Below are positions 22,601 to 51,235 of a stretch of 64,000 nucleotides of DNA, piece by piece. Where the stretch lies: positions 434,001 through 498,000 of the forward strand of contig NW_026515680.1 in assembly GCF_025526975.1 (NCBI RefSeq). The letters run 5' to 3'. The notes beneath the pieces are model-generated. The model was given only the letters and a program-made list of their open reading frames with translations, did not search any database and was not told the origin of the DNA. The position numbers were made by a program, and so were the translations under genes. The stretch comes from Fimicolochytrium jonesii. Lineage: Eukaryota. Each line of letters starts with the position of its first letter. Position 1 is the first letter of the stretch.

Positions 22601-25600
22601 GGATTCCGTCGTACTGACTCGCCCATCCCTCGAGGACAAGAAGTCACGTACCGCCGCCTCGCGAGTTCGTTTTTCACGGCGCTTTCGGCCTGATCCTGGT
22701 TGGTATTTTCCCAGACCTGGGGAACCAGCTTTGTCACGACCTTGCGCGCTTTTTGGGGTTGCATTGAGGTCATGCAGCCCGATGGCCAAGTCTATTTCGT
22801 TTTCCAGCTGAGACAGCTCATCCATGTATTGCACGGCTGCAGACAGGTCTGCATCGCCGGATGATGGGGTAGTGGGTACTTTCGGGGTCGTCTCCCTGGA
22901 AAGCATCTCCGACGGTGTTTGACGACCACGCGATTGTAGCTGTGGCCGAACATCTGAGCCGTCCATGACCCTTAGTCCGTGCTGCTTCTGGTCTCCTACG
23001 GCCACCAGTTGTACATCGCGAGCGGACGAAGGGGGCCGTCGCCCGGTCGAAGGCCGGGAGCGTGAAAGCTGCGCTTCGGCGTTTGGAGGCATTGGCATTC
23101 TTTGCTGAGTCTTTGCCAAGTCCGCCAACATCGACTGGTCCATTTCAGCAGAACGTAGTCCCGCTAAAACTTCTTGCAAGTTATCCAAGTGTGATTGTAA
23201 GTTGAGTCGTGTCGCTTCGATCACACTTGGAAGGAAATGCGCCTCTTCCGCGGACGTGAGCCGGCCTGCTGTCGAAGACATTTCCGCGGTCTTTGGCTTC
23301 TTGATTGACGTCTCATCGGTGGCCAGAGACGGAGGGGCCAATTTGATGATGGCCTTTCCGCCCGTGGCCATCAGACGACCTCTGTACTGCTCTCCGTCTC
23401 GTGTGCGAATCATCCAATGCCCCGCATAAATGGCATTGTATTCTCTGGGCATCGTTTGCATATCAACCACCAATGAGCCCCCTGGCTCAATGATCTCGTG
23501 CGTGGGATTGATGAAGAAAACATCAAAATCATCGTTGGACATGATGGTCCCATCCTTTGTCACCATTGTGAGGTTGATCTCAAACTCGATGTGCCGTTTG
23601 CCTGTGTTATTCAGCACCATCCCGTGGGTGTGAGTCTTGTTGATGCACACGATACCAAAGTCGATGAACATGTCATCCTCAGAAATTTGCAGGTAGGGAA
23701 CACCAACAATTCCGTAGCACATGAGAATCTTGGACCCAACATCGGTGAAAAACGTTATGCTGTGATGGAGTGATTCGTAATCCTGAGGAGTAAACGTGAC
23801 TTCAAGAATCAGAGTCTCCCCGGGCTGCAAAGTGCCCCCCTCCGGGTCCATAGTCAGCGATGGCGTTTCCGAGCTGGCTTCCCAGTTACACATGGCGTTT
23901 CCGTCGTTCGTGACAACAAATTTCAACGCTTTATTGACATTGATGTACGTTGTGTGAAAGTCGAGTTCGGTATTTTGCAATCGGAACACCGGCATCCCCA
24001 CCTGGACCAACAAAGGGATGACGATCTCCTCCCAGGCTCCTATGGGATTCCGCAACCAACGGATGATGACTTGCGCGGAAGTTTCGATAATACGCTCACA
24101 GTTGCATTCAATCTCAAGCGACTCCAGGCCACCGCTGTCGATGAGGCCCTCGTGATCGAAGGGATCCTCGCTCAACAGCGTGAAGTCCTGACCTGTCTGC
24201 GCGATCTCCAGAAAATACTTGCATGCCAGAAGACCTCGATTGTGCAGGTGCAACGTTTTCGATCCGATCGAGCCCACTTTCAAGCTTCCAAAATCCACAG
24301 CTTCCTCCGTGGAGAGATCTGCGCTAGCTCCAGTTCCGGAGAGCCGCACAATGGATGTTCCGTAATTATGCAGGAAACGCGCCTCGCCATGATATTGAAC
24401 CTGTTCCTTCGGAGGATGAAATTCCACAGGGATGTAGATCTTTTCGCCAGCCTGCAGCGTCCATGTCCTCCCTTTGATCGTAAATTCCGGGTTGATCGAC
24501 TGAAGCGTCAAATTCTGTGCCTCCATTGACATGTTGAGAACTTCCAATTGGAGGAGCGCTACTCCGTCTTTCTGTCCTTCTCTCATCACTCCATACGAGT
24601 CGAGCAGTTCACGATGCTCCATCTTGCGCGTGTCAGGTGCGATGTACGCTTCGGCCGGTGCCAAGCCAAAATCGTGGTAAGGTGGGTAGAGTTCAAGCGT
24701 GCGATACACCCCACCGATGACGTGGACGGACATATTTTTATAAAGAGCTGACAAGCTCTCTGGGTCTTCGTCCGTGGTGATGGGCATATAATGGAAGACT
24801 AGGTCCGTGTCCTTCCTTGCCTGATATCTGCTAGTATAGCCTAAACGAAAGTGATACGAATAAAATGGGCGAAGTTGCGGTAGTTGTAGTAGCGATGCGT
24901 GATCCAAGAGATTGAGCTTCCCCGTGCGCTGAATGCGAATCGATTTTCCCTCCTCTTCCGATGGACCCTCGTTTCTACGGTTTTTATCCTTCACCTTCCT
25001 CACCCCTGTCGAACCTGAAAGTAACTGTTTCAGTACGCTAAAAACCGAAAACTTCCGCCTCAAGATGCTCCAAAAGTCCCGCTTTACTACGATGGCGTTG
25101 CGGCCCGCCCGCTGCCCCGAGTTCACTTCATAAGGAACTGTCGATGTTATCGTCAAGTAGTCCAATTTGACCAAATCCAGGTTATCAGCCGTCACAGCTT
25201 TCAAAGTCAGCGGCAGGGTCCCTTTGTTGGTGAGATGAAGAGATAGGTACCCGACAGTTCCTTCGCGTTGAAAGCCAAAATCAACGTCTTTCGTTTCGTA
25301 CTTTTCGCAGATGAGCTCGGCTGTCCCGCCAGTGCCGGTCAAAAGAACAAGATAAAGCTTATGATTTGAGAACGCTAGAACCTTGATCTGACTCGTCCGG
25401 GACTCCGTTGGTGAGTAGGTCACCACTATCTCTTGATTTCCTTTGGGAGGAAGATAAAACGACTTTGGACTGATATCAAAAGGAGGACGCGATAGAATGG
25501 TGACTGGCGCTTCCGTAGACCCATTGTTGGAGATAATAATCTTCCTTTTCTTTTTTTGGTATACTACCGTGCTACCAAAGTCCAACGTGTCTGGAAGCCC

Positions 25601-28600
25601 TGTCATTGACGTCGCCACGTTCTGCCCTCGCAAAATAACGTTCACCAGCTTGACTGGTTTGGCGAAACGGTCCACAGCCTCCTTGACATATATCTCCGCC
25701 GTTGTCTCGAAAGTACCGCTGGTATCGCAGTGGAATCGAAAGGGAATCGCAAAGCTTTCCATGGTCTGAATTTCTCCCATCATCATGGATGCATCAAAAG
25801 CGGAGAACTTCTGCTTTGTACCAACAAATTTGACGTTCCAAGAATAGCTGGTCAGGTAGGTGTTGCAGAGCAGAATATACTTCAAGTTTATATCCAAGGC
25901 TTGCACCGTCATCTCCACGCGTCCGAAGTCGAGAATCACTGCGTTTCCATCCTTACTTGGTTGAGGAAAAACGAGAATGTCGTGTAAAGGCTTCCCCACG
26001 GTCTGTATCGCGTGGAATGTGTGATCATGATCCGTGAGGGCGGCCGCAAATCCGAAAGTTGTCGCAGATTCACTTATATCGACCGGGGGTAAGAAAATCA
26101 CGTCCACATTGTCAACATCCGCTGGTTGCATTGATTTTGCTCGAGGGTCGACGCTGAATCCGGTAGACGCAAAAAACACTACGTTCCGGTTTTGACTGCC
26201 CGTATTCTGGATGAGAATGGGCTGAACATGTGACCTCCTGATGTTGGCGTCGGCCACAGAAGTGTTCGGCCGGGACAAATCTAGGTTGAAGAGCATCAGT
26301 TGACGACGGAGCTCATGAGAGCTTGCTTAACTGAAGAACGTACCTGGACGGAACATCACAAGCTCTTTTGCGAAAGTCAACTCGGGTCGGGCTCCAGGTG
26401 TGTAGGGCTTCGCAATGGGTCCCAAGTCAAACCTCTGCGCTCTTTCAGCTGATGATGGATATTCATCCAGAAGCCTCTTCGGATGAGACATCCACATTCG
26501 CAGGAAGTCCACACTATTCTTATCCGGTATCCCCCCAGGCCTATGAAGGTAGGGCTCGATGCAAATGCCAATAAGGTGCAGACTTTTCTCCATGATTGCC
26601 GCCATTGTTTTCAGTTTGAAAGGCTTTACAATACACAGCTCAACGAGCTGCAGTAAGGGTCCTCTCTGCTTCGCGGAAAACGTGAACGTGGCCGGAATCA
26701 TGGAAAACGCGGGAATGGTGGTCGGCTCATTGAATTTCGTTGAAAGTGTGGTCCTAATACAGCTTTCCATAATCGAGGATTCTCCATCGCTTCTTTCAGA
26801 AACATCTTCGCCTGCCACCCGAAGGCCGTCGACATGAAACTGAAGCTCATATTGGGAGACGTTGATGAAATTCAGTGTCAGATGCTCTTCTGCTCCGATG
26901 CGACAAGGCTTGAAGAAGGCGTACTCCCAAATCGGACAGAAGATGGGTTGCCCAACAAATGCACGAATGTTCAAGGGAATATTCTGAAACTCTGGGCAGA
27001 TAACTTCGATTGCAGTGAGGATATTTCCGCTCAAAGTGGAGCTCTCTTCCTTCTCGAAACGGACCTCTACAGTATTCGCCATTCGGGGCGCAATACGTAC
27101 TAGATACGGACACTTGATGGCGGAGTGATGGGGATAAAGACCGACTGTTACGGGAGTGTCAGCCAGGTTCATAAGGGTGAGGCACCGCAAACGGCAATGA
27201 GGTTCACTTGGACATATTCCAAAATCCATTGTATGGGCTTCCTTCCGTGAATCCTGATCAGAAGTAGCGGACATCATATTCTTCAAAATTGCAGTGTCAT
27301 CCGCGGTCAAGGCCACATGAGCCTTCTCCCCGCTGCGCGGATCAGGACGGCGGAACTTCCGCATGAAGTTGCATCGCTCCCTTGTGAGTTCGGCCGCTCC
27401 AGCCCGCGAATTTTCTTCGTTTTCTGGATAGACAGCGATAGGTATTCCGGCAATACCAGCAATTTTTACATGTATCAGATCGCCTCCCGGACCGTTGATT
27501 TCCACAACATCCGCGAAGTGCCCGAGTTTCGTCGGTTCGAAATACACGGGGATATTTTTGGACTCGTGCGGCTGCAGCTTCACTTGCCTGACGGGTAAGA
27601 CGAATGCTGAGGTGTCTCGATCGCTTTGCCTTTTGGATCCGTGCTCGTCCTTTCGTGGAGTGGATGATTGGGTTCCATATGCTTCTCCGTTATTCGATGA
27701 CACATTTTGCAATTCGCTTTCTAATTGAATAGCAACGATAGCGGGCGAGCTAGAGATGTTCTCCATGGTGAGTAGGACCTCTTTGCGCCGATCCGGGAGA
27801 GTCCAGCCGGCGTCTACACTGACTGGGTTGACCTTCAAAAAGCTTTTGCGGAAGGCAACGAGACTGCAAGAAGCCATTTTCTTCCCGGTGTCGTCAATCA
27901 AGTTCAAGGACCCTTCCACTTGATCAATCTTCATTGCATCCGGATAGTAGGTCAGCGAGATTTCCATGACCCCTTCTCCCTGAAGTTTGAGATGAAACAT
28001 CTTGACAGCAAACACATCGACCGGTTCGACTGACAAGAAAAAGTCACGTTCTCCGTAATCTCCACGTCCCGCACGGTATCTCAGTACCGCTGCTTTCGAC
28101 ACGGGGGCATGCACGCTTTGAAACTCGAGATTCCCTGGCTCGATTTGAACGCGAATGGCATTGGCCCGTAAATACGCAAGATCATCGCTGTCCCGCAAGA
28201 ACCCTACAATATCTTCGGGATCTTCCATGGTGACATCCCCAAGATCCTCTTCTCCCTCATCAAACCCATTGAGTCTCCTGAACTCCGCGACTCGCCGGAT
28301 CGTTCCCACAGCGCGCTTATGACCTTTCAAGAAGTTTTGTTTGAGCTGAGGCTGCGCTTCCTCAAGGTTCTCAACCAGTTGAGCCGTCATCTGTGCTTGA
28401 TCCATTGGCTTTGGTGGCCTCCGCCTCGCCGTACCACGAGCAGATCTTGTCAGGCTGAGCTGAGACTCTATGTGACTCACTGAGCCACTACCCTCATCCC
28501 ACTCCTCATCATCGTCCTCTTCAAAGGAGGGCCATGCAGCACGAACGGTCGCTGGCGGCGGAATAACCATCACTCCCCGATGATGCATCAGAGAGGGGAT

Positions 28601-33907: not shown

Positions 33908-34360
33908 GGGAGGAGGTGGGGCTACCACCGTGACGGTCTGGCCCGTGCCCTTGGCAGCACAGGTGGTGCCGGAGGCAGCAGGGGTGGTGGACGAGGCGGC
34001 AGCGGCAGTTGAGCGGGTGGCAGGCGAGACGGCAATGGCAGTTGAGCGGGTGGTACGACGAGCCGGTCTTGAGCTCTAAGAACTCAAGAAAGCGCAGTTC
34101 TGACGCCTGGATATCTGATAAACGTTCCAGACATCTCAGAGCCTTCCAAGATGCGTCAAGATGCATCACACGGGGGAGGTAGGACTACGACTGTGATGGT
34201 CTGGCCCATACCCTTGGCAGCCAAGGTGGTGCCAGAGGCAGCAGGGGTGGTGGGCAAGGCGGCAGCGGCAGTTGGGTGGGTGGCAGGTGAGACAGCAACG
34301 GCAGTTGAGCGGGTGGCAGGCAAGATGGCAACGCCAGTTGAGCGGGTGGTACAACAAGCC
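33908..34360. repeat. Diverged direct duplication (33908-34064 vs 34172-34360) with internal ~30-bp subrepeats, separated by a Copia-LTR-like fragment (34071-34170)
   Basis: Direct sequence comparison. 34071-34160 resembles the Copia LTR segment at ~58335-58428 (GAGCTCTA.GAAC..AAAGCGCAGT.CTGACGCCTGGAT). Confidence 0.7.
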
Positions 34361-36003: not shown

Positions 36004-36547
36004 CTATGCTGTTTGTCTCCGTATCCACAAAGATTGTGGATGAGCTTTTTGCCATCGTTTGTAGGCAGGCGTGTAGCAAAGTGCGGATTCGGGTTCCCAA
36101 GTAGGGTCAGGATAACCAAGCCATTTGACTAGAAGATTTTGTACGGCGCGTCGCTCGTCGATGATGTCTTCTACAACCCATTCAGGTTGTCCGCGTTCTT
36201 CGATTGGTGGAGGAGGTTGTGGAACTGCACGTTGCGGATATTGCTCTTCGCGATGTGGTCGTAAAATATCGACGTGAAAGACGGGCCAGATGCCGCTGAT
36301 CTTCAATGGTGATAAATCGAGTTCGTAGGTATCAGGATGTGCTCCCAGTGCGATGATTTTGAATGGTCCGATCCACGTAGCTGAGTATCGAAGTCCACTT
36401 CGTGCGTCTACTTCTAGGTTGATTCCTTGTCGGTTCAGATCGACGAGGTTGCCAATTTTGTATGCGATTGGCGTTCAACCTTTGTCGTGTTGACGTGCGA
36501 ATTGATCTTGCGATCTCTGAAGGTTTTCGCGTACGATACGGGCGATG
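36004..36547 (-). pseudogene. Outer Gypsy integrase C-terminus: GPF module and chromodomain
   Basis: WIGPFKII, WPVFHVDILRP and PEWVVEDIIDERR..LVKWLGYPDPTWEP. Continues the integrase at 46545+ once the inner element is removed (..GQEDIARIVRENL..). Confidence 0.88.
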
Positions 36548-36971
36548 TGTGAACGTGATCAGGTTGACGGCGTACGAGGAGATGGGGAGATTCAAGGGAA
36601 GATTAGTATTTGTGCGCGCGTGACCAGGCGTGATCAGTAGTAGGATAGAGACACACCCCCTTCCCCCCCCCCCCCCACCATAAAATGGACAACACTGGCG
36701 TAGATTGCCCGGGGAGCATCTTACCGGCTATAGACTAGACCATAAGTTTGTACCATAGGAGCTCAATTGACCCAACTGACTAGCGTACCTACGCCTAGCA
36801 GTCCAGGGTTGCCAATATACGGAGTACGCCCAAGCGTGTCTACTTGTGTGGTGAGAATGGGGATTTAGTTGGTCTCTACCTTTTACCTTGCACTCTCCAC
36901 TAGTAGATCATCTCCACCCGCGAACGACCCGATTTAGGACCTATCTCAGGGAATAATCGACCACTTTCACA
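36548..36971 (+). repeat. 5' LTR of the inner Gypsy (424 bp)
   Basis: TG..CA ends. The last 132 bp (36840-36971) are repeated at 46409-46540 with 3 mismatches. Confidence 0.88.
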
Positions 36972-36974
36972 TTT

Positions 36975-36992
36975 TGGGGGCTCGGCCGGGAA
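36975..36992 (+). promoter_or_regulatory. Primer-binding site complementary to the tRNA-Pro 3' end
   Basis: TGGGGGCTCGGCCGGGAA, 3 nt after the LTR, matches the classical tRNA-Pro PBS TGGGGGCTCGTCCGGGAT at 16 of 18 positions. Confidence 0.8.
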
Positions 36993-37267
36993 CAAGGAGA
37001 GACCACCTTCAAGGAAAAACAAGGAAGGAATTACAAGGAATCTACGAGGTTATTTCCAAGATCGGATTGGCAAACCACATCTGCCACCTTACAAGAAACC
37101 TACCCACGCGTCGCATTCTCTCTTTCGCTACGGAGAAGCGAAGCACCAATCTCCACCAGAGATTGAAGATCAGTCGATAGATCTTCACGAAGATCAAGAT
37201 AGGGAAACTGGCCGAAGACGCAGAATTTATCGCCAGTCCCCGCTCCGCAAGCCGCTCTTCAAGCCGC

Positions 37268-39106
37268 TTGTCAACCAAGCAAGCAATTGCGGCGAGCAGC
37301 GCGACAGCCAAACGAGCAGCCTACGAGCGATACCGAAGTTCTCTGCTCCTCAAGAGAGAACGCAAGACTACAGGCAAAGCCAAGTCCACGGATTCCCCGT
37401 CCAAGGAATCCCAGTCCAAGGAATCCCAGTCCAAGGAATCTTCCTCTGAGGAATCCTCATCCGAGAATTTGTCGTCAAAACAAGGCCCATCATCCGGTGC
37501 GAACCCGTCCCAAACAACCACAAGACCAAGCAGCTTCCCAAGCGGCTTCCCAAGTACTCCACCAGCCCCAGTATCAAGGCCACCTGCTCAGGATTCCCCC
37601 GTGGACCCTCCAGCGCAACCCCCGTCTATCCATCCATCCATCCATCCAGCCACTGCTGCTGTTGCCCCGGCGACCTCACAGCAACAAGCCCGAGCGCAGA
37701 CTCCCGACCAAGAACGGGAGCAAGAGGACACCTGGTTCACGCCGGTTGCGAGAAGGAATCCCGAAATGGCAGACGGAACCCCCGCAGGAGTCCCCCGAGC
37801 GGCCTCGGCGGCCACGGTACTTGAAGCGGCCGCAAGAGGATTTGAGCGAGCCCACTGGAAGTTGAAGAATGACATCTCGGCGAGATTCAAAGGCAAGCCG
37901 GGCGAGGATGCATATGCATTCCTGGAGAGGCTGAGACAAGAAGCTCAAAGGGCCGTAGACCAAAAGTACTTCGAAAACCTCGACGACATGGTGCCCAAGT
38001 TCGGCCCCCTCTTCAAGGATGGAGCGAAGAAATGGTGGAGCAGTCTGTCGTCGACCGACATTCCATTTGAGCAATTCAAGGAACAATTCATGGCTCAATA
38101 CAACAAGAAGATACCTCCTATCTATCGCTCGGCGAAAGTAGCCAGTATGAAGAAGCTCAAGAAGGAAATGTCGCGCAACTTCGCCATTCGGATGAAAGAA
38201 GCCAATTCCCGCCTCGGCACCACTCCCCTAGACCTAGGCCAGCTCAAGTATGCCTTGTACCAAGGTCACAAGCCTCGTGAGCAAGACAAGATCGAGGAAG
38301 TCAAGATAGGGGGCAAGGACTGGTACGACAAGGCGGTGACCTTTGACCACTTTGCCGAAGACGCGTACCAAAGAATCGACAAGAAACGGCTCCGAAGCCG
38401 GCGCCACGCTCGTAGCTCCTCCTTGTCCTCCTCGGACTTGGAGTCGAGCTCTAGTGGCTCCTCCTCTGGTTCTTCCTCGGAAGAAGAACGCAGCTGTCGT
38501 CGCCGGAACAAGAAGAACAACAGGAGGTTCCGGCCCCAGCGACGAGGATCCCCGTCGCCCATTCTGAAGACGGCCGTCCAAGTTGCCCTGCCCAGTCCCA
38601 TGCCCACCGCCGACTTCGAGAAGCTAGCCAAACAGGCGGCGGAGAACGAGATAACCAAGTTCAAAGAGGAACTCCGCTTGACCGGTAGCCGACGTGGACA
38701 CATGGGACGGGCCATACACTTGATGGAATTTGACGATGACCGGGATGATTACGCCGGTTACGAGGCGTACATGATGGACCAACAACAAGGTCCATACCCC
38801 CGCCAGCCATATCCACGCAACGACTACGGCCAGCAGAGGCAGAACGACCTCAGTACGCAAGTACAGGAAGTCGTCAAGAAAGCGGTTGCCAAAATTGCCG
38901 CGCAAATGGCCAAGGTGCAGATTCACAATGGCCAGTCCTCAGGAGGATTACCAAGGATCGGAGACCGAAAGTGTTACGCCTGCGGAGGCGACCACTTCAA
39001 GGACGACGTGGACCGCGAGACGGGGCAACCAGTATGCCCCAAGAAGCAAAGCCCAGAGGCCGGACATGCCAATGCTGAGAAGCGGCATTTTCCCCGCCAG
39101 GGCTAG
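37268..39106 (+). CDS. Gag of the inner Gypsy (start codon uncertain)
   Basis: Capsid-like FKGKPGEDAYAFLERL..FKDGAKKWW..FEQFKEQF and an atypical zinc knuckle CYACGGDHFKDDVDRETGQPVC. Confidence 0.8.
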   Translation: MSTKQAIAASSATAKRAAYERYRSSLLLKRERKTTGKAKSTDSPSKESQSKESQSKESSSEESSSENLSSKQGPSSGANPSQTTTRPSSFPSGFPSTPPAPVSRPPAQDSPVDPPAQPPSIHPSIHPATAAVAPATSQQQARAQTPDQEREQEDTWFTPVARRNPEMADGTPAGVPRAASAATVLEAAARGFERAHWKLKNDISARFKGKPGEDAYAFLERLRQEAQRAVDQKYFENLDDMVPKFGPLFKDGAKKWWSSLSSTDIPFEQFKEQFMAQYNKKIPPIYRSAKVASMKKLKKEMSRNFAIRMKEANSRLGTTPLDLGQLKYALYQGHKPREQDKIEEVKIGGKDWYDKAVTFDHFAEDAYQRIDKKRLRSRRHARSSSLSSSDLESSSSGSSSGSSSEEERSCRRRNKKNNRRFRPQRRGSPSPILKTAVQVALPSPMPTADFEKLAKQAAENEITKFKEELRLTGSRRGHMGRAIHLMEFDDDRDDYAGYEAYMMDQQQGPYPRQPYPRNDYGQQRQNDLSTQVQEVVKKAVAKIAAQMAKVQIHNGQSSGGLPRIGDRKCYACGGDHFKDDVDRETGQPVCPKKQSPEAGHANAEKRHFPRQG

Positions 39107-39145
39107 GAGCCAAGAGCCTCCTAGTCCTGGAACCGACGGCTCTTG
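39085..39145 (+). promoter_or_regulatory. Predicted -1 ribosomal frameshift signal (slippery site plus H-type pseudoknot)
   Basis: G CAT TTT, a 5-nt spacer, a 13-bp stem CCAGGGCTAGGAG/CTCCTAGTCCTGG (one G-U pair), and loop CAAGAGC pairing with downstream GCTCTTG. The -1 frame is open 39079-39912. Confidence 0.7.
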
Positions 39146-39420
39146 AGCAGAAAGACCACGGAGAATCGCTGCCTCAAGGCCAGGATGAAAGTCTGACCTT
39201 TCCTGCTCGGTCACCATCAGAACCGAGAAGAGGCAGTGATTCCGACTCCGAAAGCGACTGGGGAACGCGCAGAGAACTAACGACAGCTGACAAATCATTA
39301 CAACCTCAACACCTGTCCAAGTCGGGAGAAGAAAAACCCGACTCGGAGGACCCTGACCGTACACGCTACCCGTCTCCGCCACCCGAAAAAGAACTCTACT
39401 TGATCAACTTGGTTGACAAG

Positions 39421-39720
39421 AACGATTGGCAATTGCACCCGGACATCTTTCAGCAACTCGATGACGGACCCTGGGGAGGCCCACACGGCCACACTGTGGA
39501 CCTCTTCGCCACGAAGCAGAACGCTCAAGTTTCAAGGTACTGCTCGGTCGACCAGACGGACACCAATGCAATTGCTCACGACGCCTTCAAGATTTGCTGG
39601 GACGCTGAGAATGGCTGGGTCAATCCCCCTTGGCTCGCCATTCAACAAGTGCTAGACAAGGTCGTCACGGACGGAGCGACCATTACGCTGATTACCCCCG
39701 TATGGCAAGAAGCTCCATGC
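39421..39720 (+). pseudogene. DIRS/Dam-type DNA N6-adenine methyltransferase domain at the N-terminus of pol; C-terminal end cut by a frameshift/deletion
   Basis: DWQLHPDIFQQL..WGGP..VDLFATKQNAQVSRYCS..DAFKICW..GWVNPPWLAIQQVLDK..TLITPVWQEAP contains the DLFA SAM-binding motif and the NPPW catalytic motif in the spacing typical of DIRS MT domains. Confidence 0.85.
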
Positions 39721-42700
39721 ACTTCCGAGACCGGTTGCGCCAAGCGTGGACCTTCAAGACCGGCCCCCGCCATGTCAAGCGCCTGCCATTCCAAGACTGC
39801 TACGCAGGGACTCTGTCCTTCCTACGCATTCCGTTCCGGACAATCCTCTCCATCCGTCGGCGCCCACCAGCAACAGCGGACAAAAAAGGGGAGGAGGACG
39901 CCAAGGCGGTAGCAATTGACACGGCCATATCGGACGCACACAAGAAGGGTTCACTGGAAGAGATAATGCTTCTGGAGAAGACGGTCAAGCGACGGAAACG
40001 CAAGGCATTGAAGAGAGAATTCCTCGACAGCCTTGTCTGGAAACAAGTCGGAACGGACGAGTACGATCCCAAGGCGCAATTCTTCCTGAAAGACTTGACG
40101 ATAGTCACGGGAGAATTGCTGAGCAAGGCAAGACCGTACCTCAATGTCCGAGAAAAGTACGAGATCACCGCGCATCCTGGGGACGACTTACCCACCCAGG
40201 ACACTTGGATGGCTCCGGTGGCTGGAAATGAAGAAAGATTCCACGCCTGGAAAGAGGCCCGAGAGCTGTCCCTCACGGACAGCCGCATCGTCATTCCTCC
40301 CGATGAAGGAAAAGAGGACACCCTCCTTGATTCACTTCATGCCCACGTTGAAAAGGACACGACAAGTAGTCCGGACCTACGCAAGATGTACACAATTGCG
40401 CAGATCTACGAGAAGATTGAGGACACGCCTCTCAACGAGCTCGTTGTCGAGACTGCAGCTAGTCTCAACGGCATGGACGCTACATTCTACATGATGCTGA
40501 AGACCAAGCATGGCTCGAAGATCAAGGCCACCAAGTATGAGCGCAAGCTGTTGGGGATTGGCGAAGGCCGTTCAATAGGCCACATTGAATTGAGAGTCAA
40601 GCCTGGCGTCAATGGAAGGCACAGTTACAAGTTGAAGTTCAACATCATACCCAACTTGGGACGATTGGTGCTTATCGGCATCCCAGGGCTCAATGCAATG
40701 GGGGCAGTCATGGACATGGAGAAGAGATCATTCGCCTTCCGACTACCAACCGAGGAGCAAATGACGACGCCCACGAAGATAACGCTAGAAGACCATCCCC
40801 TTCACACCCACCTCCCGACGATCGCTCCGCTAGGGCCATCACGCTACAACGTAGTTATCAAGCAAGATCGAGTGGTGTTGAAACCAATGGCGGTGACGCA
40901 CGTACGGGTCGGCGGAACGAAGCAAGGAATCCCCGGAACGACGCACCTAGTCGAAGGCAGCAAGGCGTTAGGCGAGTCAGGCATATGGTGTGCGAACCAA
41001 CTTGGAAAGGCCGACGAGAACGGAGAATGGCTGTACCCATTCGCAAATCTCACGCCCCGGAAGCGCATCCTTTGGAAGAATCATGTCGTCGGAACAAACA
41101 CCGCCAGCGACCACGACTTACGGGTAGAACCGGTACCTGAGGCGTATCTGACGGAGGAGAAGCTGAGCGGATGGTTGACCGAAAACCTGAAGAATGACCT
41201 ACCGCCACCGCCGCCCGCATGGCCGAGCAGCCCAAAGGCCGGAGGCCAACGCCATTGGATGATGCCCGGATTGAGAAGCACCACCGGCTCAGCATTCTAC
41301 ACGCTGCAGAGCCAAGAGGAAGTGAAGGCCTGTGGAACGGATGAGCCGGAAGAGGGACCAGTGGAGGTGAAAGGGTTGGGGCAGGAGGAAATTGGCGAAT
41401 TGGCAAAGACATCGGCCATTCACAAGATGAAGGATTTGGACGCGGCCGCTACCCCTCTGGAGGACGCGCAATCCTACACGTCACCAGCCGCCCGCCAAGG
41501 ACGAGACGAAATAGGAGCAATGGCGCCTCGAGCACACCTGGCACCGGAAGAAGACAAAGCATTGCGGGACGTACTGCTAGCAAATGCGGAAGCCTTCGAC
41601 TCCCAAATTCCGGACAAGCCGAACATTCCGTACGAACACCACATGGAGATCATGCCGGGGACTCTTCCCATCGCCCACCCTCCACGCCGACAGGGCCAGC
41701 AGAAGGAGAAGGTTCTACGCGAGCACACCGACACGATGCTGAAGGACAACCTCATCTGACCCAGTAGAACACCATGGGCCGCTCCGGTGTTGCTAGTTAA
41801 AAAGCCGGGGGGTGGACTAAGGTTCGTCACTGACTACCGTGAACTCAACGCAAAGACGATACCCGACTCCTATCCGCTGCCTCGAGTCGACTCGACCATT
41901 GAATTCCTCACCGGCAAAAAGTGGTTCACAACCATGGACCTATGCTGGGGTTTCTGGCAGATACTGATCAAGGAAGAGCACAAGCACCTCACAGCCTTCT
42001 GTACACCCCATGGGCTGTTCGAGTACAACAAACTCCCGTTCGGACTCAAGAATTCTCCGCCTACCTTCCAACGCGTGATGGACGCGGTCCTGGCAGGACT
42101 GAAGTACAGCTTCTGCCTGGTCTACGTGGACGACATCATTGTGTTCTCCGACACGTTCGAGGAGCACATGACCCATGTCTCCCAAGTCCTCACCCGCATT
42201 CAAGAATCTGGACTACGAGTGAAGCTGGAGAAGTGCCATTTCGCGGTACACGCAATTCACTTCCTCGGCAAGAAGGTAGACGGCCAAGGGTTATCAGTAG
42301 ACAAAGCCAAAGTGACCAAGATCCTCGATGTCAAACCCCCAAAGGAAAAGCGTCTGTTGCAACGCCTCCTCGCAATGTCTGTTTACCACCATCAGCACAT
42401 TAAGAGGTACGGCCAAATTGCTCGACCACTGTACGACTTGCTCAAGAACGACGCAGTGTGGAAATGGGGACCAGAAGAGCAAAAGGCATTCGAGGAATTG
42501 CGACAGGGAATGGCGGACGCGGCAATCCTGGAATTCCCGGAAGAAGGATGCCCGCTGGTCCTCAAGTGCGACGCGAGCAAACTCGGACTTGGAGCCGCGC
42601 TCTACAAGGTTAAGGGCGGAAAGGAGATCCCTCTGGTCTTCATCTGCAAGTCGCTAACGGACGCAGAGAAGCAATACTCGCACACGGAGAGAAAGGGATT

Positions 42701-44705
42701 GGCAATTCACTGGGCCGTGACAAAGCTGGAGTACTACATCTGGGGAAAACCATTCACGGTGGAAACAGATCACTCTGCGCTGCTGGCACTGGCCAAGCAC
42801 GGAGACATGGCAGGAAAGTGGGCGCGATGGAGATACGCGCTCCAAGACTACCAGATGGAGATTCGGTACAAAGCCGGCAGCTCACGGTCCCACGCAGTAC
42901 CGGACTTCATATCGAGAGCCTTGTTGGAAGAGAAAAGGTCGATAGGAACCCAGACGGAGGCAATTGAAGAAGCGTCTGGAGAGAGGAAAGACGAGGTGTT
43001 CCTGATGGGGGGAGAAGCGGCCGCCGCGGAGAAGACTTCAGCAACACCAGGTGTCATTACCCTGGAAGGAGCGTTCGCCAAGGAGATTGAACGCAAGCAG
43101 AAGGAGGACTACCGGACAACATCCTGACAAAGCAACTCATGCTACGGACGATATCCGACCTACGCGTCCAGGACGGCAGACTCTATCAAATTCAAGAGTT
43201 TTGCCAACCCGGGTACCGACGCCAGATGTTCAAACAGATTGTCGTACCAGCCAACTTGCGAAGACGATGCCTGGAGCTCTGCCACGACGACCTGTTGGCA
43301 GGACATCTGGGCAGAGACAAAACGTACAGCAGACTCCAACAGTCCTTCTGGTGGCCGGAATGCGTGGCGGACATGATCAATCACCTTGCCAGTTGCGTCA
43401 AATGCAATCAGCACAAGCCGGGAATGCCGAAGTCTGCAAGAGGAGGAGAGATGGACCCAATCGTCATTGGAGACGTGTGGTGGCGGGTCGGAATGGACTT
43501 GCTTGGACCTTTGCCGGCTACAAGGAATACGAAGTTCAAATACGTACTCGTTGTCATCGACTACGCCAGCAAATTCAGCTTCGCAATTCCATTGAAGGAC
43601 GCAAAGGCGTACATGGTTGCCCGGGCTCTTATGGAGCACGTGTTCACCATCTTCGGGGTCCCCGGAGTGATAACGTCGGACCGTGGACAGCCCTTCACGA
43701 GCGAGGTTCCGAAGGCGCTCCTGAAACTACTGGGGGCCGCCCCAGCATTAGCATTCATGGGAGGCGATTGGGAAAGGAGCAATGCCGGTTGGGGACTTGC
43801 AAGCGGAGATTGTCAGGCACCTGCAGATTGCATGGGATTTGGCCAAGGAGAACGTCGCCAAAGCCCAAGCACGACAAAAGGCGTGGTACGACAAGAACTC
43901 CGAGAAGACAAGCGCCCAGCTAGGAGAACAAGTCTGGCTGGCAATTCCCCAGTTTCGTAAGTCGACCAACGTGGAAAATGTGACGGCCATCAAGAAGTTC
44001 GCTGCCAAATGGAGTGGACCACACCGGGTTGTAGGTGTCGGCGACAACGGCCTCACCTACAAGCTTATGGAACTCCTCTTGCCAATTGAAGTCATCTACC
44101 AGACAGCCCATATCCGGCGCATGCGACCATTCACCGCCAGGCGACCGCTAGACCCGACGGAACTAATTGAGATGGACGAAGAGGAAATTTTGACAGCTCA
44201 ATTGGCACAGGCAGCGACGGCTCGAGTCTTGAAGAAGACGCCATTCAGGCGTAGAGCGTACGGGACGTCCCACGAACTGAAGAAGCGAGCGCTCGACCCG
44301 GACACGGACTCGGAAGACTCTGATGGCAATGTCGGGGATGAATGGGAGGTCAAGAAGATCATCGACCACCGTCAGGACGACAATGGGAAGTGGGAATTCG
44401 AAGGCCACTGGAAAAACTGGAACACAGGGCACGACAGCTGGGTGGTACTCTCGGACTTCCGAGGGCAGGAGCTACTGGATACGTACTGTCGCGCAAACGG
44501 CATCACCGTTGGGGACGAATCACCTACGGTGGACGCCCAGACCGGCGATGACAGCATGCAATTACGCCGGTCCACGAGACAATCCACGCAGAAGTCTCCA
44601 AAAAGGGGAGGAGATAAGAGCGCGGATACTTCAGAGGCCGCAGAGCGGAGGCAGAACAAAGGAGGGAACAGAGGGTCAGCTGGTCGGCACAGGAGCAGGG
44701 AATGA
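39721..44705 (+). pseudogene. Inner Gypsy pol: protease, spacer, RT, RNase H, integrase (core partly deleted), GPY/F, chromodomain
   Basis: Protease LVVETAASLN..VLIGIPGL; RT PWAAPVLLVKK, FGLKNSP and YVDD; RNase H CDASKLGLGA; integrase HHCC, GMDLLGP and SDRG; WSGPHRV; chromodomain EWEVKKIIDHR..HWKNW..DSWV (44340-44500). Stop at 41757 and frame breaks near 43105 and 43740. Confidence 0.9.
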
Positions 44706-44946
44706 GAAAAAAAAAAAAGGGAAAAAAGCACGCAACCGCGGACCAACCGGCATCTTCCACGTTGGTGGAGTACCCAGCGGCCCAGCGGGAGCAAGACGTG
44801 CAGCAAGAGAATGCTCAGCAGGACAGAAGGGAGAGAACGCCCAGAACCCAAGGGAATTCCCCCTCTTCGGAAATGCATAAATAGCGGGCATCAGAAGCCG
44901 CTTCCCTCAACCCCCACCAACCCTCAACCGACCACCGTCCCCCAGC

Positions 44947-46423
44947 ATGCTCCTACGCTACCCCTTCCCCCCTCTCGACCCCAAACCGGTACTCCCAGAA
45001 CTCCGACCATCACGTCCCGAAGATCCTCCACCACCTCCTCAAGAAGATCCAGCGTCGCAGACCTGTCCAATGCGGTCTCGAAGCCGCCTATCCTGCGACC
45101 AACAACCAGGACCGAGAATCAGCGCACGAAATCGCCGGTTCCCGATACCCCTGTCCGCCCCGTGTCCCCCACGCACCAATCAAGGTCGACTCTCCCCCTC
45201 AGCTCGACAGACGGTTCAGAGAAGCCACCGGCTCCCGTACTCCCGTTCCAGTGAAGGCAACGGGGAACAAACGTCCGCCAATCCGCTTGCCCAGAATCAC
45301 CGTGCGAAATGCCGGCGACACCCCTGTCGACACCCGCAAGAAAAGGAAGGTGTTGGACACGCCCGAAGAACGACGAAGAGGCGAAGCAATCATTGGCCCC
45401 GCCACTCTCAGCGTCTCCGGCCTGGACCCGGAAGAGGACGAGTTCACGAGGGAGACCCTGATGAGGGACGTGGAATACCAGCCCGGAAATAAAGAGGAGT
45501 ACTACGGAGCAGAGAAGAACGGGGCCGTCTGCATATGCGAAAACCCGGACAATAGCGCTTCCATTTATGGTCGCGTTGTCCAATGCGAACTCGAAGACCT
45601 CTGATGTGGAAGCCAATTCTACCCCCCAGAATGCCTCAACAATCAGAGACTTCCCCACCCCCAGGAAGACGAAGAAGTTCTGCAGGACTACTACGCCCAG
45701 TACAACTTTGTTTGCCCACCTTGCCTAGAAGACCTCCCGGAGAATGCGGAGACCGACGGCAAGATCACTGCGACCAAGCACCCGAACGTTGGCAAGACGA
45801 GGGGACTGCGTCTGGCGCCCTACGACCATGAGAACCGCAAGTGGAAGACCGACTTCAAGATGAAGACCGGGGAGGGGGATATAGAGGAAGGCCGACCGTA
45901 CCGGGTCTCAGGGAGGGACATCGAAACCATCATGCTCCCGAGCCAATACAAGGAGTATACGGACGTCCCATCCACCATGTACACCCGTGTGCACGGCCTC
46001 TTCCCCCACCCGGTGCTGACCTCGCGCTCGAGAGCCCACAACCACATGCAAGACTGGGAAAAGGAATTGATCTTGAAGCAAGCCGTCTTTGTCGTCATTA
46101 CCAACGTGGAGCCGCACTACACTCAATGTGCCAAGGCCCTCCGCAAAGAGCATGGCATCCATGAGACTCGGGACGACCTAGAGGACCCAGAAGCACTGCT
46201 CCTCCAAGCCGCCTTCCCCCGCATCGACCAGCCCAACTACCTTATCTACGCAGGCCCCAACCTTTGGGAACTCGAGATCATCGTTGCGAGCTTTGGCCCT
46301 AAACCCAAAGACAAGCCGGAGGACAAGGAGCTGACGTTTGGCATGCCAAGAGTAGAGTCTGAATTGTGGTCAAGCCTGGCGTTGAAATGCTTGCCACCGG
46401 CGACCTTGCTACTTGTGTGGTGA
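44947..46423 (+). pseudogene. ORF3 of the inner Gypsy containing a PHD finger (45530-45724); one internal TGA; 3' end lost by deletion into the LTR
   Basis: Frame 2 is open from 44885 to 46423 apart from TGA at 45602. It reads VCICENPD..IYGRVVQCELEDL*CGSQFYPPECL..FVCPPC. Start codon is uncertain (ATG 44947 is in another frame). Confidence 0.7.
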
Positions 46424-46540
46424 GAATAGGGATTTAGTTGGTCTCTACCTTTTACCTTGCACTCTCCACAAGTAGATCATCTCCACCCGCGAACGACCCG
46501 ATTTAGGACCTATCTCAGGGAATAATCAACCACTTTCACA
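46409..46540 (+). repeat. Truncated 3' LTR of the inner Gypsy
   Basis: 129/132 identity to 36840-36971. Ends TTTCACA and is followed by the TSD GATG. Confidence 0.9.
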
Positions 46541-49363
46541 GATGTCTTCCTGCCCTTTCTTGAAGAGTTCGATTTCGTTTCGATCTACAGCTTGAAGTTT
46601 GAGTTCTTGTCCTTTGAGTGTTGGATTCCAACCCGGGAGGATTGGAGAGCGTCCGAGATCTACTTTGAATGGCGATAAACCTTCATATTCCTCCCTCGGA
46701 GCGGTATTATATGCGAATTCGATTAAAGGCAATAGTTTCTTCCAATTGCTTTTGTCGTAGTTGAGGTATTGCTTCCAAATCCTTTTCAGGGTTTGGATGG
46801 CTCGCTCAACTTTGCCGTCGGTTTGCTGATGACGAGCCGTAGCGAATTCGTGTTTTACACCGAGGAGAATGTCGATCGCGAGGAAGAAGTCGGGTTGAAG
46901 TGCGCGAGGTTCGCGATCCGTAACGAAGACCTTTGGCGTACCGACATGTTTCCAAACATGATCTAGAAAAACTTGGGCTAGTTCACGTCCAGTAATTGTC
47001 TTCTTGATTGGTGTCAGAATCACACGTCCGGAAAAGAAATCAATGCAGACAAGACCAGAGTTTGTTTCATCTACTTTGAAAATGTCGAATCCGATCGTGT
47101 GCCATCTTCAAAAAGGTATAGGAAGAGGTCGTATCGACGATGACCAGGTTTGAATTGTCGACAGGATTTGCAAGTTCCAACGTTTTTGATAACGTCGGAG
47201 CGTACGGTAGGCCAGTAATAGTCCGTAAGAATTCTCGCAAGAGTCTTCTTAACACCAAGATGTCCTCCGGTGGCAAGTTCGTCATGGAATTTCCGCAAGA
47301 TCTTTGGGCGAATGTCTTCAGGAACATATAAACGTCCTTCGTGTCGTACTAATCCATTTTCAAACTATAACGGAGTTCTTTCGAAGTTTTCTCGTGTTGA
47401 GGCTTTCGAGAAATTTCATTGAGATAATCCGAATATGGATCTTCGCGTAGCGCTTTTTTCCATTCTTCTTCTGAGCAGGTAGGTGAGTTTTGTGGATCGT
47501 CTGTCGTAGCATTGGAGGAAGGTTTGTTGACAAGCATGTTGCTGATCTGCGTATGCATGTCGAGGCGTCGTTGACAATCTACACACCGAGGCGCATAGAT
47601 TGGATTGCGGGAGAGCATGTCGGCGATATGATTCCATTGTCCAGGTAAATACGGGATGTCAAAATCATACTCTTGTAGCTTCTCTTCCCAATTGGCTTGT
47701 CTTCTGCTCAAATGGGGGTGCGTTTGGATGAATTCGAGTCCCTTGCGACCGCTAAAACATCGGAAGTAACAACCGATGAGATATGGTCAATTGGCGACCA
47801 ACATCTTGACAAGAGCTAATAGCTCCTGTTCGGGCGTAGGATATCGTGTTTCTGCGTCCTTCATCTTTCTAGAAAAGAAGACCACAGGCCGGAGCCGAGG
47901 TAACTTCTTCCATTGTCCGACGAGAGTAGGCAGATTCGTAGGGATCGTTTCATCGCCAGAAGGTTGTCCAATCCAGCCAGCGATAGCGTAGCCTGATGAG
48001 TTGGTGTAGACATAAATTGGCTTGGTTTTATTGATTGTTGCTAGCGTAGGCGCATTGATCAACGCTTCTTTCAACTTTTGAAATGCCTCTTGTTGCTCAG
48101 AACCCCATCGAAATTTCACTTTCGAAGATTGAATACTTGATAGGGGCAGAGCGATGTCCAAATAACCTTGTACAAAGTCGAGGAAGTAGTTTGTGAACCC
48201 GAGAAAGCTTTGAACTCCTTTTGTTGACTTTGGAGTAGCCCAATCCTTGATAGCTAGGATTTTTGAGGGCGCGATGCGAACACCATGTCTTCCGACAATA
48301 TGTCCACACCATTCAAGTTCTTCTTTAGCCCATACGCACTTTGAAGGCTTGATGAAAAGGGCGTGTTCCTCAAGTTTCTTCAGGATACAATCGACGTGTT
48401 CCCGATGTTCGGCTAAGGTCTTTGAGAAAATGAAAATGTCGTGCAAGTAGGTAGCGAGGAATTCGTCGTAATCTTTATGGAAGATCTTATTCATAAGACG
48501 TTGAAGCGCAGCAGGTGCGTTGGTAAGCCCGAACGGCATGACCAAATACTTGAAATGTCCAAAGCGAGTTTGTATTGCCGTTTTTTCCCGATCTTGTTTC
48601 CGTATAAGAAGACGATGGTATGCTTCTCGAATATCAATAAGCGTAAACCATTTACAATCTTGAATCCGATCCCTCATCTCACGAATATTGGGTAAAGGAG
48701 TGCGATCTTTCTTGATGACGGCGTTGAGACCTCGGTAGTCCCAACAGATGCGTAATCCGCCATCTTTCTTTTTCGCAAAGACAACACTAGCTCCCCAGGG
48801 ACTTGAGGAGTGTTGTACCCATCCTTTTTCGAGCATTGAGGTGATTTGTTTCTTGAGTTCAGCGAGTTCTTCTTTGTTCATGTGCCAAAGAGGATGCCAA
48901 ACAGGTTCAGCACCTTCAGTGAGTTCGATCTTGAAATTATCTTCTCTGCGATCAGGGGGTAGACCTTCCGGTTCCTTGAAGAGCGTATTGACGTATTTAT
49001 TGAGGATATCCTTGAGATGTCCTGGAGTTCCTTTAAGCTCTTGAGGAGTGTCCGGTATTTCGTTAAGAGTGAGGCGACAGACCGTGTCTTTTTCAAACTT
49101 GTTCCGTCGCCAAGCCTCATTGAATCGCTTAGAAGTCATTTCTATGACTTGAGGATTGCGAAGGGCATTGGCTTGAGCGAATCGAGATACATAATGAGGT
49201 GCGGCTTGTAGAGGACGAGTATCCACAGGTTTAATGATCCAAACAGGTTGAAGGGTCTTTTGTCATAGACCGGATCTCGTTGTACGTCGAAGTAAGGGTT
49301 GTTGTGTTTCGGGATGGTATTTGACGTCTTCCCAGTTTCTTGGAGTTCTTTCGCACTTGATGG

Positions 49364-50001: not shown

Positions 50002-51081
50002 CTATCGACCTTGGAAAAAACTCGAAGATTGATTTGTAGTAGTATTCGTAGTATTCGCAGAGTTGACGGCGTCACCCAGAATTTCCGTAATGCGTGACCC
50101 AGCATCAACCTGATGGGCTGAACCTTGTTGTTGATTAGGTTGGCGACTGCGCTGCGGAGTTTGAGCGCCACGACCGCGCTGTCGAAAACCACCGCGTCGG
50201 TTCTGGGTTTGCGAGCCTTGCGGTCAATTTTCGGGATTTGACCAGCATTCAACTCTCCAATGTCTCATTTTGTTACAAAGGGGACAAGGAGTCGTTGGAC
50301 GTTGACGAGGAACGTGAGTAGTTTGCCATTGTCCACGTCGACAAAAGGGCTGTTGATGTTGGTAGGGAACTTGACCTGTAGTGAGACGTCTCACTCCAGG
50401 GGGATAGTATGACGTACCAAGGGCATTAAGCCCAGAGGTCATATCATCTAAGTCTTGCTCAAATTCCGTAATTCGAGGATTGGTGTAAGGGGCAAATCGT
50501 CCGCCACGACCACCGCCTTGACTACCTCGACCGCGACTGGCTCCACGGACGCCATGAGCACTTGTTGCCGAGGCAATTGGACGAGGTGTATTGGCTTGGT
50601 TGCCGTCAGTGAACCCATGAGCCACATGAGCTCGACGGGCTGCAGTGATAGCTTGATCGAGAGTGATAGGGGTGTTGATGTTGGTAGTGCTTGAGACTTC
50701 GAAGTTCGTAACGGCTTCAGCGAGATAATGACCGATTACTGTATTCTTGAGAAGACCGGCCTTGAAGTATCGAATCTGATCGATAAGGGGAATGGTGCCT
50801 TGAGTGTTATCGAGACGATGAGCGGCTTCGAGCTCATTATTGGTGTCTTGAAACTCCTTGATATTTTTTTCGAGAGAGTCACCGAGCTTGAGGCCGGAGA
50901 GCTTGAGCTCAATAGTATTACGCAAGTTGCGAGGATAAAAGTGAGCAACAAGAGCCGTTTGAAAAGCTGTCCAACTCGCGGGGGCGCCGGTGGCGTAAGT
51001 CGTGTTGTACCACTCGAGAGCAGTACCCTTGAGGTAGGTAGTGAGCGTAGGAGCGTACTCTGCCATAGTAAAGGCTATGGC
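50002..51081 (-). pseudogene. Outer Gypsy gag, 5'-truncated, with a premature TGA at 50226-50224
   Basis: YLKGTALEWY..SWTAFQTALVAHFYP and zinc knuckle CPLCNKMRHWRVEC. The frame continues past the TGA to TAG at 50004-50002. Confidence 0.85.
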
Positions 51082-51235
51082 GTTGGCAGTGGGGCTTGCG
51101 GGGCTTCAGTGAGGCTTGGCGCCTTATGTAATGTATCACCGAGAGCTCGGGTGGCCAGCCCGGGTCTTGGATCAAATAGAAGTAAAGAGGTATGATATGA
51201 AATACAAGTGAAGATGAGATATCCCCGACACGCAG

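Follow-up and report, generated by a model that had tools for sequence, protein, structure and literature searches.

Ty3/Gypsy retrotransposons whose Pol contains a Dam-like adenine methyltransferase domain have recently been described as "DAM-LTRs" (Fernandez-Moreno et al., 22 May 2026; bioRxiv 10.64898/2026.05.21.726589), LTR standing for long terminal repeat. The main text of this preprint proposes a single eukaryotic DAM clade which originated in DIRS elements and was transferred at least four times into Ty3/Gypsy, with five lineages being reported (green algae, chloro-ochrophyte, ichthyosporean, Pyropia, and Euglena). It associates DAM-LTRs with hosts that encode AMT1, their copies having more N6-methyladenine (6mA) and more transcription. 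According to the available sections of an earlier survey, the methyltransferase was found only in DIRS, and no tyrosine recombinase elements were found in Spizellomyces punctatus and Batrachochytrium dendrobatidis (Muszewska et al., 2013; PMC3783388). The present analysis concerns a chromodomain-bearing Ty3/Gypsy LTR retrotransposon of ~9.7 kb (36840-46540, plus strand) in a stretch of 64,000 nucleotides of the chytrid Fimicolochytrium jonesii (contig NW_026515680.1, positions 434,001 to 498,000), the whole of which is referred to as the window and to which all coordinates refer. The element is probably a degenerate copy whose Pol is headed by a DIRS-type, Dam-like methyltransferase (MT) domain upstream of the protease (PR), with the MT of intact relatives, as part of Gag-Pol, predicted to methylate the element's own replication intermediates.

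Methyltransferase Domain of the Element

The order of the element is LTR, gag, MT, PR, reverse transcriptase (RT), RNase H, integrase (IN), chromodomain, an extra open reading frame (ORF), and LTR. The gag ORF (37181..39106, plus strand, frame 2) is overlapped at its end by 28 nt by an ORF in frame 1 which runs from stop to stop at 39079-39912 and is therefore -1 relative to gag, as had been stated in the original prediction made for this locus. Within it lies the N-terminal two thirds of the MT domain (39412..39717, plus strand, frame 1), in which the motifs DLFA (39499-39510), DAF (39577-39585), and NPPW (39622-39633) were read. DWQLHPDIF precedes these motifs, and VLDK and LITPVW (TPVW) follow them. 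The predicted starts of DLFA and NPPW, and the intact state of the latter, were thus confirmed.

A stretch of 114 amino acids (39379-39720) was searched with phmmer against 1.84 billion representative proteins, giving 2470 matches at E ≤ 1e-3, 170 at E ≤ 1e-10, and four at E ≤ 1e-30. Chance occurrence of the motifs is ruled out by these values. The four closest proteins (P0001 to P0004) share 55–62% identity with the window over the MT, and P0003 also aligns with the low-complexity linker rich in Ser, Asp, Glu, and Pro with which the translated pol frame starts (39079..39411, plus strand, frame 1; alignment from 39292). Past these four, the best matches are DIRS-type RT-RNaseH-Dam ORFs with an N-terminal RT and the matching domain at the C-terminus (E 1e-19 to 1e-11), which bears out the assignment to a DIRS/Dam type. 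RVT_1 was detected in 47 of the 49 DIRS-style proteins scanned, and Pfam Dam was detected at E ≤ 1e-5 in 24 of them and above the Pfam cut-off in 21; another 19 matches were also scanned, with Dam at E ≤ 1e-3 in 12.

In a family alignment of 66 rows of DIRS-type MT domains both prolines of NPPW (P113 and P114) are invariant and 11 more positions are at least 90% conserved, and the window MT retains all 13 of the residues conserved at this level. NPPW, DLFA, and DAF are kept by every member of the window family that covers them (the window, P0001, P0002, P0004, a further protein P0024 and, up to its limit, P0003).

Other searches returned little. No second MT copy was found within the window; a word-indexed protein search with the MT ORF among similar lengths gave nothing at E ≤ 0.01, and one with residues 55-300 of P0001 gave, besides P0001 itself, only two DIRS-like proteins. 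A scan of JGI metagenomes with a four-sequence alignment yielded four loci at 33–38% identity, two of which (L001 and L002) have the MT closing an ORF of 500-700 amino acids in DIRS fashion; close relatives with their DNA context were not among these loci.

Position of the Domain within Pol

Evidence for the placement of the MT comes from P0001 (817 amino acids), which has the MT at residues 63-164, then a retropepsin-fold region, and continues to the conserved start of RT, all within one ORF. Its residues 63-164 share 55% identity with window 39412-39717 in frame 1, and its residues 217-817 share 34% identity with window 39705-41756 in frame 3 over ~600 residues (E 6e-103), making the MT the best-conserved part of the ORF in this comparison. 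Residues 405-545 of P0001, with which the retropepsin-like PR region of the window is collinear (40400..40760, plus strand), were placed by a protein language model (Atlas) at a cosine of 0.95 to retroviral aspartyl proteases, with all ten of the ten best named clusters in that clan, and have a TM score of 0.75–0.80 to Ddi1-type retropepsin domains. The second protein, P0024 (890 amino acids), has an N-terminal MT followed by a protease-like D-C-G-A motif. The Dam domain is thus found in the same polyprotein in P0001, and the order in the window is identical with the frame broken. It had been predicted that the MT is the first domain of a Gypsy pol, upstream of PR. This agrees with both relatives, the MT being the first folded domain, and in P0001 the MT is not out of frame with PR and RT.

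Nesting is common at this locus, the element itself lying inside a minus-strand Gypsy, and it might be supposed that a DIRS fragment was inserted by chance into a Gypsy copy, the nesting being peculiar to the window. This explanation is extremely improbable, as the order of MT and then PR recurs in two other proteins from separate contigs which are only 27–55% identical, the collinearity of P0001 with the window extends as far as RT, and a conserved extension specific to the family links the MT to the rest of Pol. In addition, no DIRS RT, RNase H or tyrosine recombinase is present beside the MT, and the DIRS protein P0045, in which RT and MT are accompanied by Phage_integrase, matches the window over the MT alone. 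A nested DIRS fragment was accordingly rejected on the collinearity of P0001, the order in the relatives, and the restricted match of P0045, in line with the domain capture originally predicted. Judged from these alignments, the MT in this Gypsy pol is a captured domain, and we infer that it was acquired from a DIRS-like donor or was passed on from another DAM-LTR.

Predicted Fold of an Intact Relative

An AlphaFold model was built with the 66-row alignment for P0002, whose MT is intact, and not for the window copy. The mean predicted local distance difference test score (pLDDT) was 76 and the predicted template modelling score 0.69, with block-mean pLDDT values of 85–98 over residues 51-170, 67 at 171-180, and 74–98 over 181-260. 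When the model was compared with the PDB by Foldseek, five matches were obtained at E ≤ 1e-3, all of them PCIF1/CAPAM (ranks 1-5; also rank 7), with KsgA/Dim1/Erm rRNA adenine methyltransferases and M.TaqI coming after. An independent alignment to representative structures by VIA-align gave a Z of 10.9 against CAPAM (root-mean-square deviation 3.1 over 153 residues, 14% identity), with values of 8.6 for DIMT1, 8.1 for ErmE, 7.7 for M.TaqI, 7.5 for METTL5, 7.3 for M.BseCI, 7.2 for CamA, 7.0 for T4 Dam, and 6.6 for EcoDam. The model predicts a class I S-adenosylmethionine methyltransferase of the adenine-N6 kind, as anticipated, although the substrate is not readable from the fold.

It could be proposed from this ranking that the MT acts on RNA, methylating N6 of adenosine in the genomic or messenger RNA of the element, at cap-proximal or internal positions, and affecting its stability, translation or packaging. 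The best structural match is PCIF1/CAPAM by a clear margin (Z 10.9 vs. 8.6 for the next), rRNA adenine methyltransferases rank next (KsgA, DIMT1, Erm, and METTL5), and P0024 gave a weak PCIF1_WW line (E 4.7e-3). However, the substrate does not follow from a common fold, and the DNA enzymes M.TaqI, M.BseCI, CamA, and T4 Dam come within about 1–1.6 Z of the rRNA enzymes. The sequence family is that of Pfam Dam, a group of phage enzymes which methylate N6 of adenine in DNA, and the main text of the preprint ties DAM-LTRs to 6mA in DNA (10.64898/2026.05.21.726589). An RNA target is consequently considered quite unlikely.

Beyond the end of the DIRS-type domain, ~55 residues of P0002 (196-250) were confidently modelled as a helix and three short strands, forming a small beta unit. 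This extension is common only to the window family and is absent in DIRS MT domains. It is found in the window at 39720..39880 (plus strand, frame 3), where it aligns with residues 217-276 of P0001 and 201-260 of P0002.

Phylogeny of the Methyltransferase

In the MT tree, the window, P0001 to P0004, and P0024 form one clade (SH-aLRT 97), which sits within a clade of 16 rows (SH-aLRT 96). The other members of the latter include a protein whose RT is DIRS-like and all five LTR elements in which Dam follows RNase H or precedes IN (P0023, P0059, P0121, P0117, and P0146). The placement of Dam differs in LTR elements of this kind, being in the interval between RNase H and IN in P0023, P0059, and P0121, after RNase H in P0117, before rve in P0146 (the last two named Abeoforma whisleri by the source), and after IN in P0082. 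When P0121 and P0023 were aligned with the window by tblastn, the swapped order of domains was directly visible.

The RT of the window is 27–31% identical to the RTs of those five Dam-bearing LTR elements and 30% identical to that of an unrelated Gypsy in the window, whereas its MT is 47–53% identical to theirs. The MT domains of LTR elements thus form one subclade among DIRS MTs, and the corresponding RTs resemble one another no more than they resemble an unrelated Gypsy. This difference in identity suggests that the MT moved between backbones more recently than the backbones diverged.

Condition of the Window Copy

The complete MT domain (~160 residues, up to and including the conserved W..L and G positions) is not present in the window, but it is present in P0001, P0002, P0004, and P0024. 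Residues 165-216 of P0001, a block also conserved in P0002, P0004, and P0024, have no counterpart in the window. At the break (39705..39730, plus strand) ~52 codons of the MT C-terminus have been deleted, and frame 1 gives way to frame 3 at ~39718. The missing third includes W144, L148, and G194 (P0002 numbering), which are conserved across the family. A frame break at ~39720 removing the C-terminal part had been predicted; the loss of that part was confirmed, with a deletion and a change of frame being responsible rather than a simple frameshift.

Downstream, a 716-codon ORF in frame 3 (39609-41759, plus strand) has no Pfam match. At the active-site position of PR the window has E-T-A-A (40449-40460), compared with D-S-A-A in P0001 (~432-435) and D-C-G-A in P0024. 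The protease of this family departs from the usual D-S/T-G-A, and none of the Pfam protease models matched the PR region of the window. The integrase is divided between two frames, and the 3′ ORF is interrupted by an in-frame TGA. On account of the MT deletion, the change of Asp to Glu in PR, the frameshifts in the integrase, and the TGA in the 3′ ORF, the window copy is dead, despite LTRs which differ at only three of 132 positions.

Translation of Pol

Within the gag/pol overlap, a candidate -1 frameshift site was located at 39088..39130 (plus strand), where CAUUUUCCCC, with its U4C4 run, is followed by a 13-bp hairpin which includes the gag stop codon. The predicted RNA fold of 39086-39200 has an energy of -42.4 kcal/mol (z -2.26), with five of 200 shuffles being as stable. 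It had been claimed that the MT is in frame with a frameshift signal. The -1 frame and the 28-nt overlap agree with this claim, whereas the signal itself proved to be the run and hairpin rather than a canonical heptamer. With this arrangement, a -1 shift from gag would give access to Pol.

A second possible recoding site is the in-frame TGA at 41757..41759 (plus strand; context atc TGA ccc), which separates the protease part from RT and lies within the conserved lead-in motif of RT, at the exact residue where P0001 ends. RNA folding downstream of this codon is not more stable than in shuffles (z 0.68). The simplest reading, based on a single broken copy and the end of a single protein (P0001), is that the TGA may be a conserved leaky stop between PR and RT. 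A -1 shift from gag combined with read-through of the TGA would produce MT-PR at a higher dosage than RT-IN.

Proposed Function and Alternatives

In intact relatives, translation of the MT within Gag-Pol is predicted, and the enzyme would place 6mA on element cDNA or on the RNA:DNA hybrid inside the particle, a model which follows the proposal made in the main text of the DAM-LTR preprint (10.64898/2026.05.21.726589). In S. punctatus, according to the available text of Romero Charria et al. (2025; PMC12695648), genes have high 6mA and transposons have 5-methylcytosine (5mC). If the host likewise marks its active genes with AMT1-dependent 6mA and its transposons with 5mC, new insertions carrying 6mA would resemble active chromatin.

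Several observations weigh against this reading. The sole copy at hand is broken, and both the frame relation of gag and pol and the TGA could be among its lesions; the overlap has no canonical X XXY YYZ slippery heptamer. The close relatives, P0001 and P0024 among them, are metagenomic proteins. The tree was obtained by a quick IQ-TREE search without bootstraps from 110 of 151 rows, 41 rows having been dropped as too short (fewer than 115 profile positions covered). The window matches Pfam Dam (PF05869) at E 1.3e-3 with 18.8 bits, under the curated cut-off of 28.1 bits, and the profile search suggested in the original prediction therefore found the family but fell short of the threshold. The relatives score similarly, with 21.0 bits for P0001, 22.6 for P0002, 16.7 for P0004, and 15.9 for P0024, and P0003 has no Pfam Dam line at E ≤ 1e-3; E-values across the window family run from 9.1e-5 to 1.1e-2, or no line is obtained. 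As the direct match of the window is weak, the link to Dam is transitive. A single-sequence search against solved structures gave no sequence-level match to any methyltransferase, and the alignment profile matched only RNase H, via DIRS fragments in the alignment. The nearest solved structure, CAPAM, is an RNA enzyme and not a DNA enzyme. In the 66-row alignment the Asn of NPPx is present in 46 rows and is replaced by F, C, V, S or H in the other 20, so the wider MT family appears to tolerate loss of the catalytic Asn. Finally, according to the main text of the preprint, 6mA in dam- Escherichia coli was not increased by related DAM domains of eukaryotes, and eukaryotic DAMs are without the N-terminal catalytic subdomain of prokaryotic Dam (10.64898/2026.05.21.726589). 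As a separate observation, the number of rows in which the Asn is lost suggests that many MT domains of the DIRS type may have no catalytic activity.

Some of these points would fit a pseudo-enzyme, that is, an MT whose fold is kept for a structural or nucleic acid-binding role in the Gag-Pol precursor or the particle and which transfers no methyl group. The negative heterologous assay, the lack of one catalytic subdomain of prokaryotic Dam, and the replacement of Asn in 20 of 66 rows all favour it. Yet every covering member of the window family keeps NPPW, DLFA, and DAF, the MT is better conserved than the remainder of the ORF, and more 6mA was found on DAM-LTR copies in the portion of the preprint consulted (10.64898/2026.05.21.726589). 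A pseudo-enzyme is thus regarded as unlikely, and methylation of the element's own replication intermediates by an intact MT is preferred.

As regards novelty, the family of the window is most likely an undescribed, diverged DAM-LTR lineage with a different domain position and a fungal host. The placement of the MT before PR and the chytrid host are likely to be new relative to the class defined in the preprint, in whose main text fungi, chytrids, oomycetes, protease, gag, and frameshifting are not mentioned, although its figures and supplements may hold such cases (10.64898/2026.05.21.726589). Literature searches aimed at an adenine methyltransferase in chromoviruses or fungal LTR elements found no earlier case.

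A more far-reaching version may be put forward tentatively, and is possible but on balance doubtful. In this version the family would be a sixth, chytrid-borne DAM-LTR lineage which lies below the Pfam threshold of the published screen, and its MT-PR module, similar to a "pro" frame and situated between a -1 frameshift and a conserved leaky TGA, would be made in excess over RT-IN and would write 6mA on new cDNA, allowing insertions to be taken for active genes in a host with 6mA on its genes and 5mC on its transposons.

The existence of retrotransposons which encode an adenine methyltransferase of their own suggests that a mobile element can give itself the "active chromatin" mark of the host; the class was established by the 2026 preprint, and enzyme activity and substrate remain predicted. 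A chytrid lineage would extend this class to fungi, in a group with strong AMT1-dependent 6mA, and its different domain position would mean that the module was re-placed within Pol more than once. The class may also be wider than reported, since a screen with Pfam Dam at E ≤ 1e-5, the threshold given in the main text of the preprint (10.64898/2026.05.21.726589), misses diverged members. The possible conserved stop between PR and RT bears on the amount of enzyme made.

Other Features of the Element

The 5′ LTR (36840..36971, plus strand) is a direct repeat of 132 nt, with TGTG...CACA from 36845, and its partner is the 3′ LTR (46409..46540, plus strand), the two being 98% identical. A candidate primer-binding site starting with TGG lies 3 nt past the 5′ LTR (36975..36992, plus strand), as read from the sequence. 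No tRNA genes were found by a tRNA scan of the window, so no primer match is available for this site. The gag ORF matches Retrotrans_gag (E 5.6e-5; 23.7 bits, slightly below the cut-off of 24.1) and has a Cys/His knuckle at 38972-39037.

RT and RNase H were identified at 41760..43127 (plus strand, frame 3; RVT_1 E 3.4e-36, RT_RNaseH E 6e-27), and the zinc-binding and core parts of the integrase at 43091..43960 (plus strand, frame 2; Integrase_H2C2 E 3.9e-19, rve E 1.7e-8). The frame of the core differs both from that of RT and from that of the integrase C-terminus, which is found with the chromodomain at 43752..44705 (plus strand, frame 3; Chromo E 1.5e-5, 25.3 bits against a cut-off of 25.1). 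The element accordingly has the LTRs and the Ty3/Gypsy-type RT, RNase H, and DDE integrase of a DAM-LTR, as well as the chromodomain at the integrase C-terminus which marks a chromovirus. The combination typical of DIRS elements, in which a tyrosine recombinase accompanies a DIRS-type RT and both protease and DDE integrase are lacking, was not found.

Between the chromodomain and the 3′ LTR lies an extra 3′ ORF of 512 codons (44885..46423, plus strand, frame 2) with one in-frame TGA at 45602-45604. A Cys-rich stretch in it is faintly PHD finger-like; when the ORF was read through with X, the sole Pfam line was PHD_NSD at E 0.081, which is not significant and was not accepted. An Rfam scan across the element gave no match at E ≤ 0.1.

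Surroundings and Host

The element is nested within a second chromodomain Gypsy on the minus strand, parts of which were recognized as integrase (46526-47107), RT/RNase H (47790-49262), gag (50227-51105), and a chromodomain-like ORF (36004-36474; region 36004-36727). The junctions of the nested element show no clear target-site duplication. Transposons are clustered in the right third of the window, where three Copia-type RT fragments were found at 54503-55321 (plus strand), 58470-59717 (minus strand), and 60698-62059 (minus strand), with RVT_2 at E 6e-52 to 2e-34. Directly upstream of the cluster there is a family of 145-nt direct repeats (33909-34349; three copies, 61–100% identity) which encode low-complexity repeats rich in Ala, Val, and Glu.

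The PhyH-like ORF of the window (4157-5368, minus strand) has only Spizellomycetales as its best named relatives, namely Powellomyces hirtus at 57%, Spizellomyces sp. at 55%, Thoreauomyces at 50%, and Geranomyces at 47–50%. The other ORFs include RasGEF, a Cep120-like, and a Hydin/CFAP65-like ORF besides this PhyH dioxygenase, a set whose predicted products fit an intron-poor flagellate host. One minus-strand ORF (20618-26326) is uninterrupted over 1903 codons and has Ig-like domains of the Hydin/CFAP65/Cep192 type. Within the same group of fungi, S. punctatus is transformable.

Comparison with Known Systems

PCIF1/CAPAM (PDB 6irx and 6irv) has the nearest solved fold to the P0002 model, but this cellular RNA enzyme also has extra helical and WW domains. 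The catalytic motif of PCIF1/CAPAM is NPPF.

An accessory enzyme in a separate "pro" frame is known from the betaretroviral dUTPase, which is encoded upstream of PR, and the Dictyostelium chromovirus Skipper has a separate pro ORF. These likewise place an extra enzyme or the protease between gag and RT, where it is reached by recoding and made at a dosage intermediate between those of Gag and RT-IN. They differ in that the enzyme is another one and in that the recoding proposed here is deduced from a broken copy and the end of one relative.

De Mendoza and colleagues are said to have described, in 2018, retrotransposons with captured cytosine methyltransferases. In those too a DNA-modifying enzyme has been captured into a Gypsy or DIRS Pol, whereas the enzymes are C5-cytosine DNA methyltransferases in other positions and the hosts are dinoflagellates and charophytes.

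The MT of DIRS1-like elements (PF05869) is homologous to that of the window and has the same conserved residues. However, it ends an RT-RNaseH ORF alongside a tyrosine recombinase in those elements, and in the window it heads a Pol with protease, RT, RNase H, and DDE integrase.

The closest known systems are the DAM-LTRs. Going by the main text of the preprint (10.64898/2026.05.21.726589), they are, like the window element, Ty3/Gypsy elements with a DIRS-derived Dam-like domain in Pol and an Asn-Pro-Pro-aromatic motif, belong to a host group with AMT1-type 6mA, and have incongruent MT and RT trees. The window MT shares a subclade with the Abeoforma whisleri DAM-LTR proteins. The Pfam Dam matches of the window family are all weaker than the 1e-5 cut-off of the DAM-LTR screen, and its MT lies upstream of the protease, in contrast to the DAM-LTR proteins inspected, in which the MT follows RNase H, precedes the integrase or follows the integrase.

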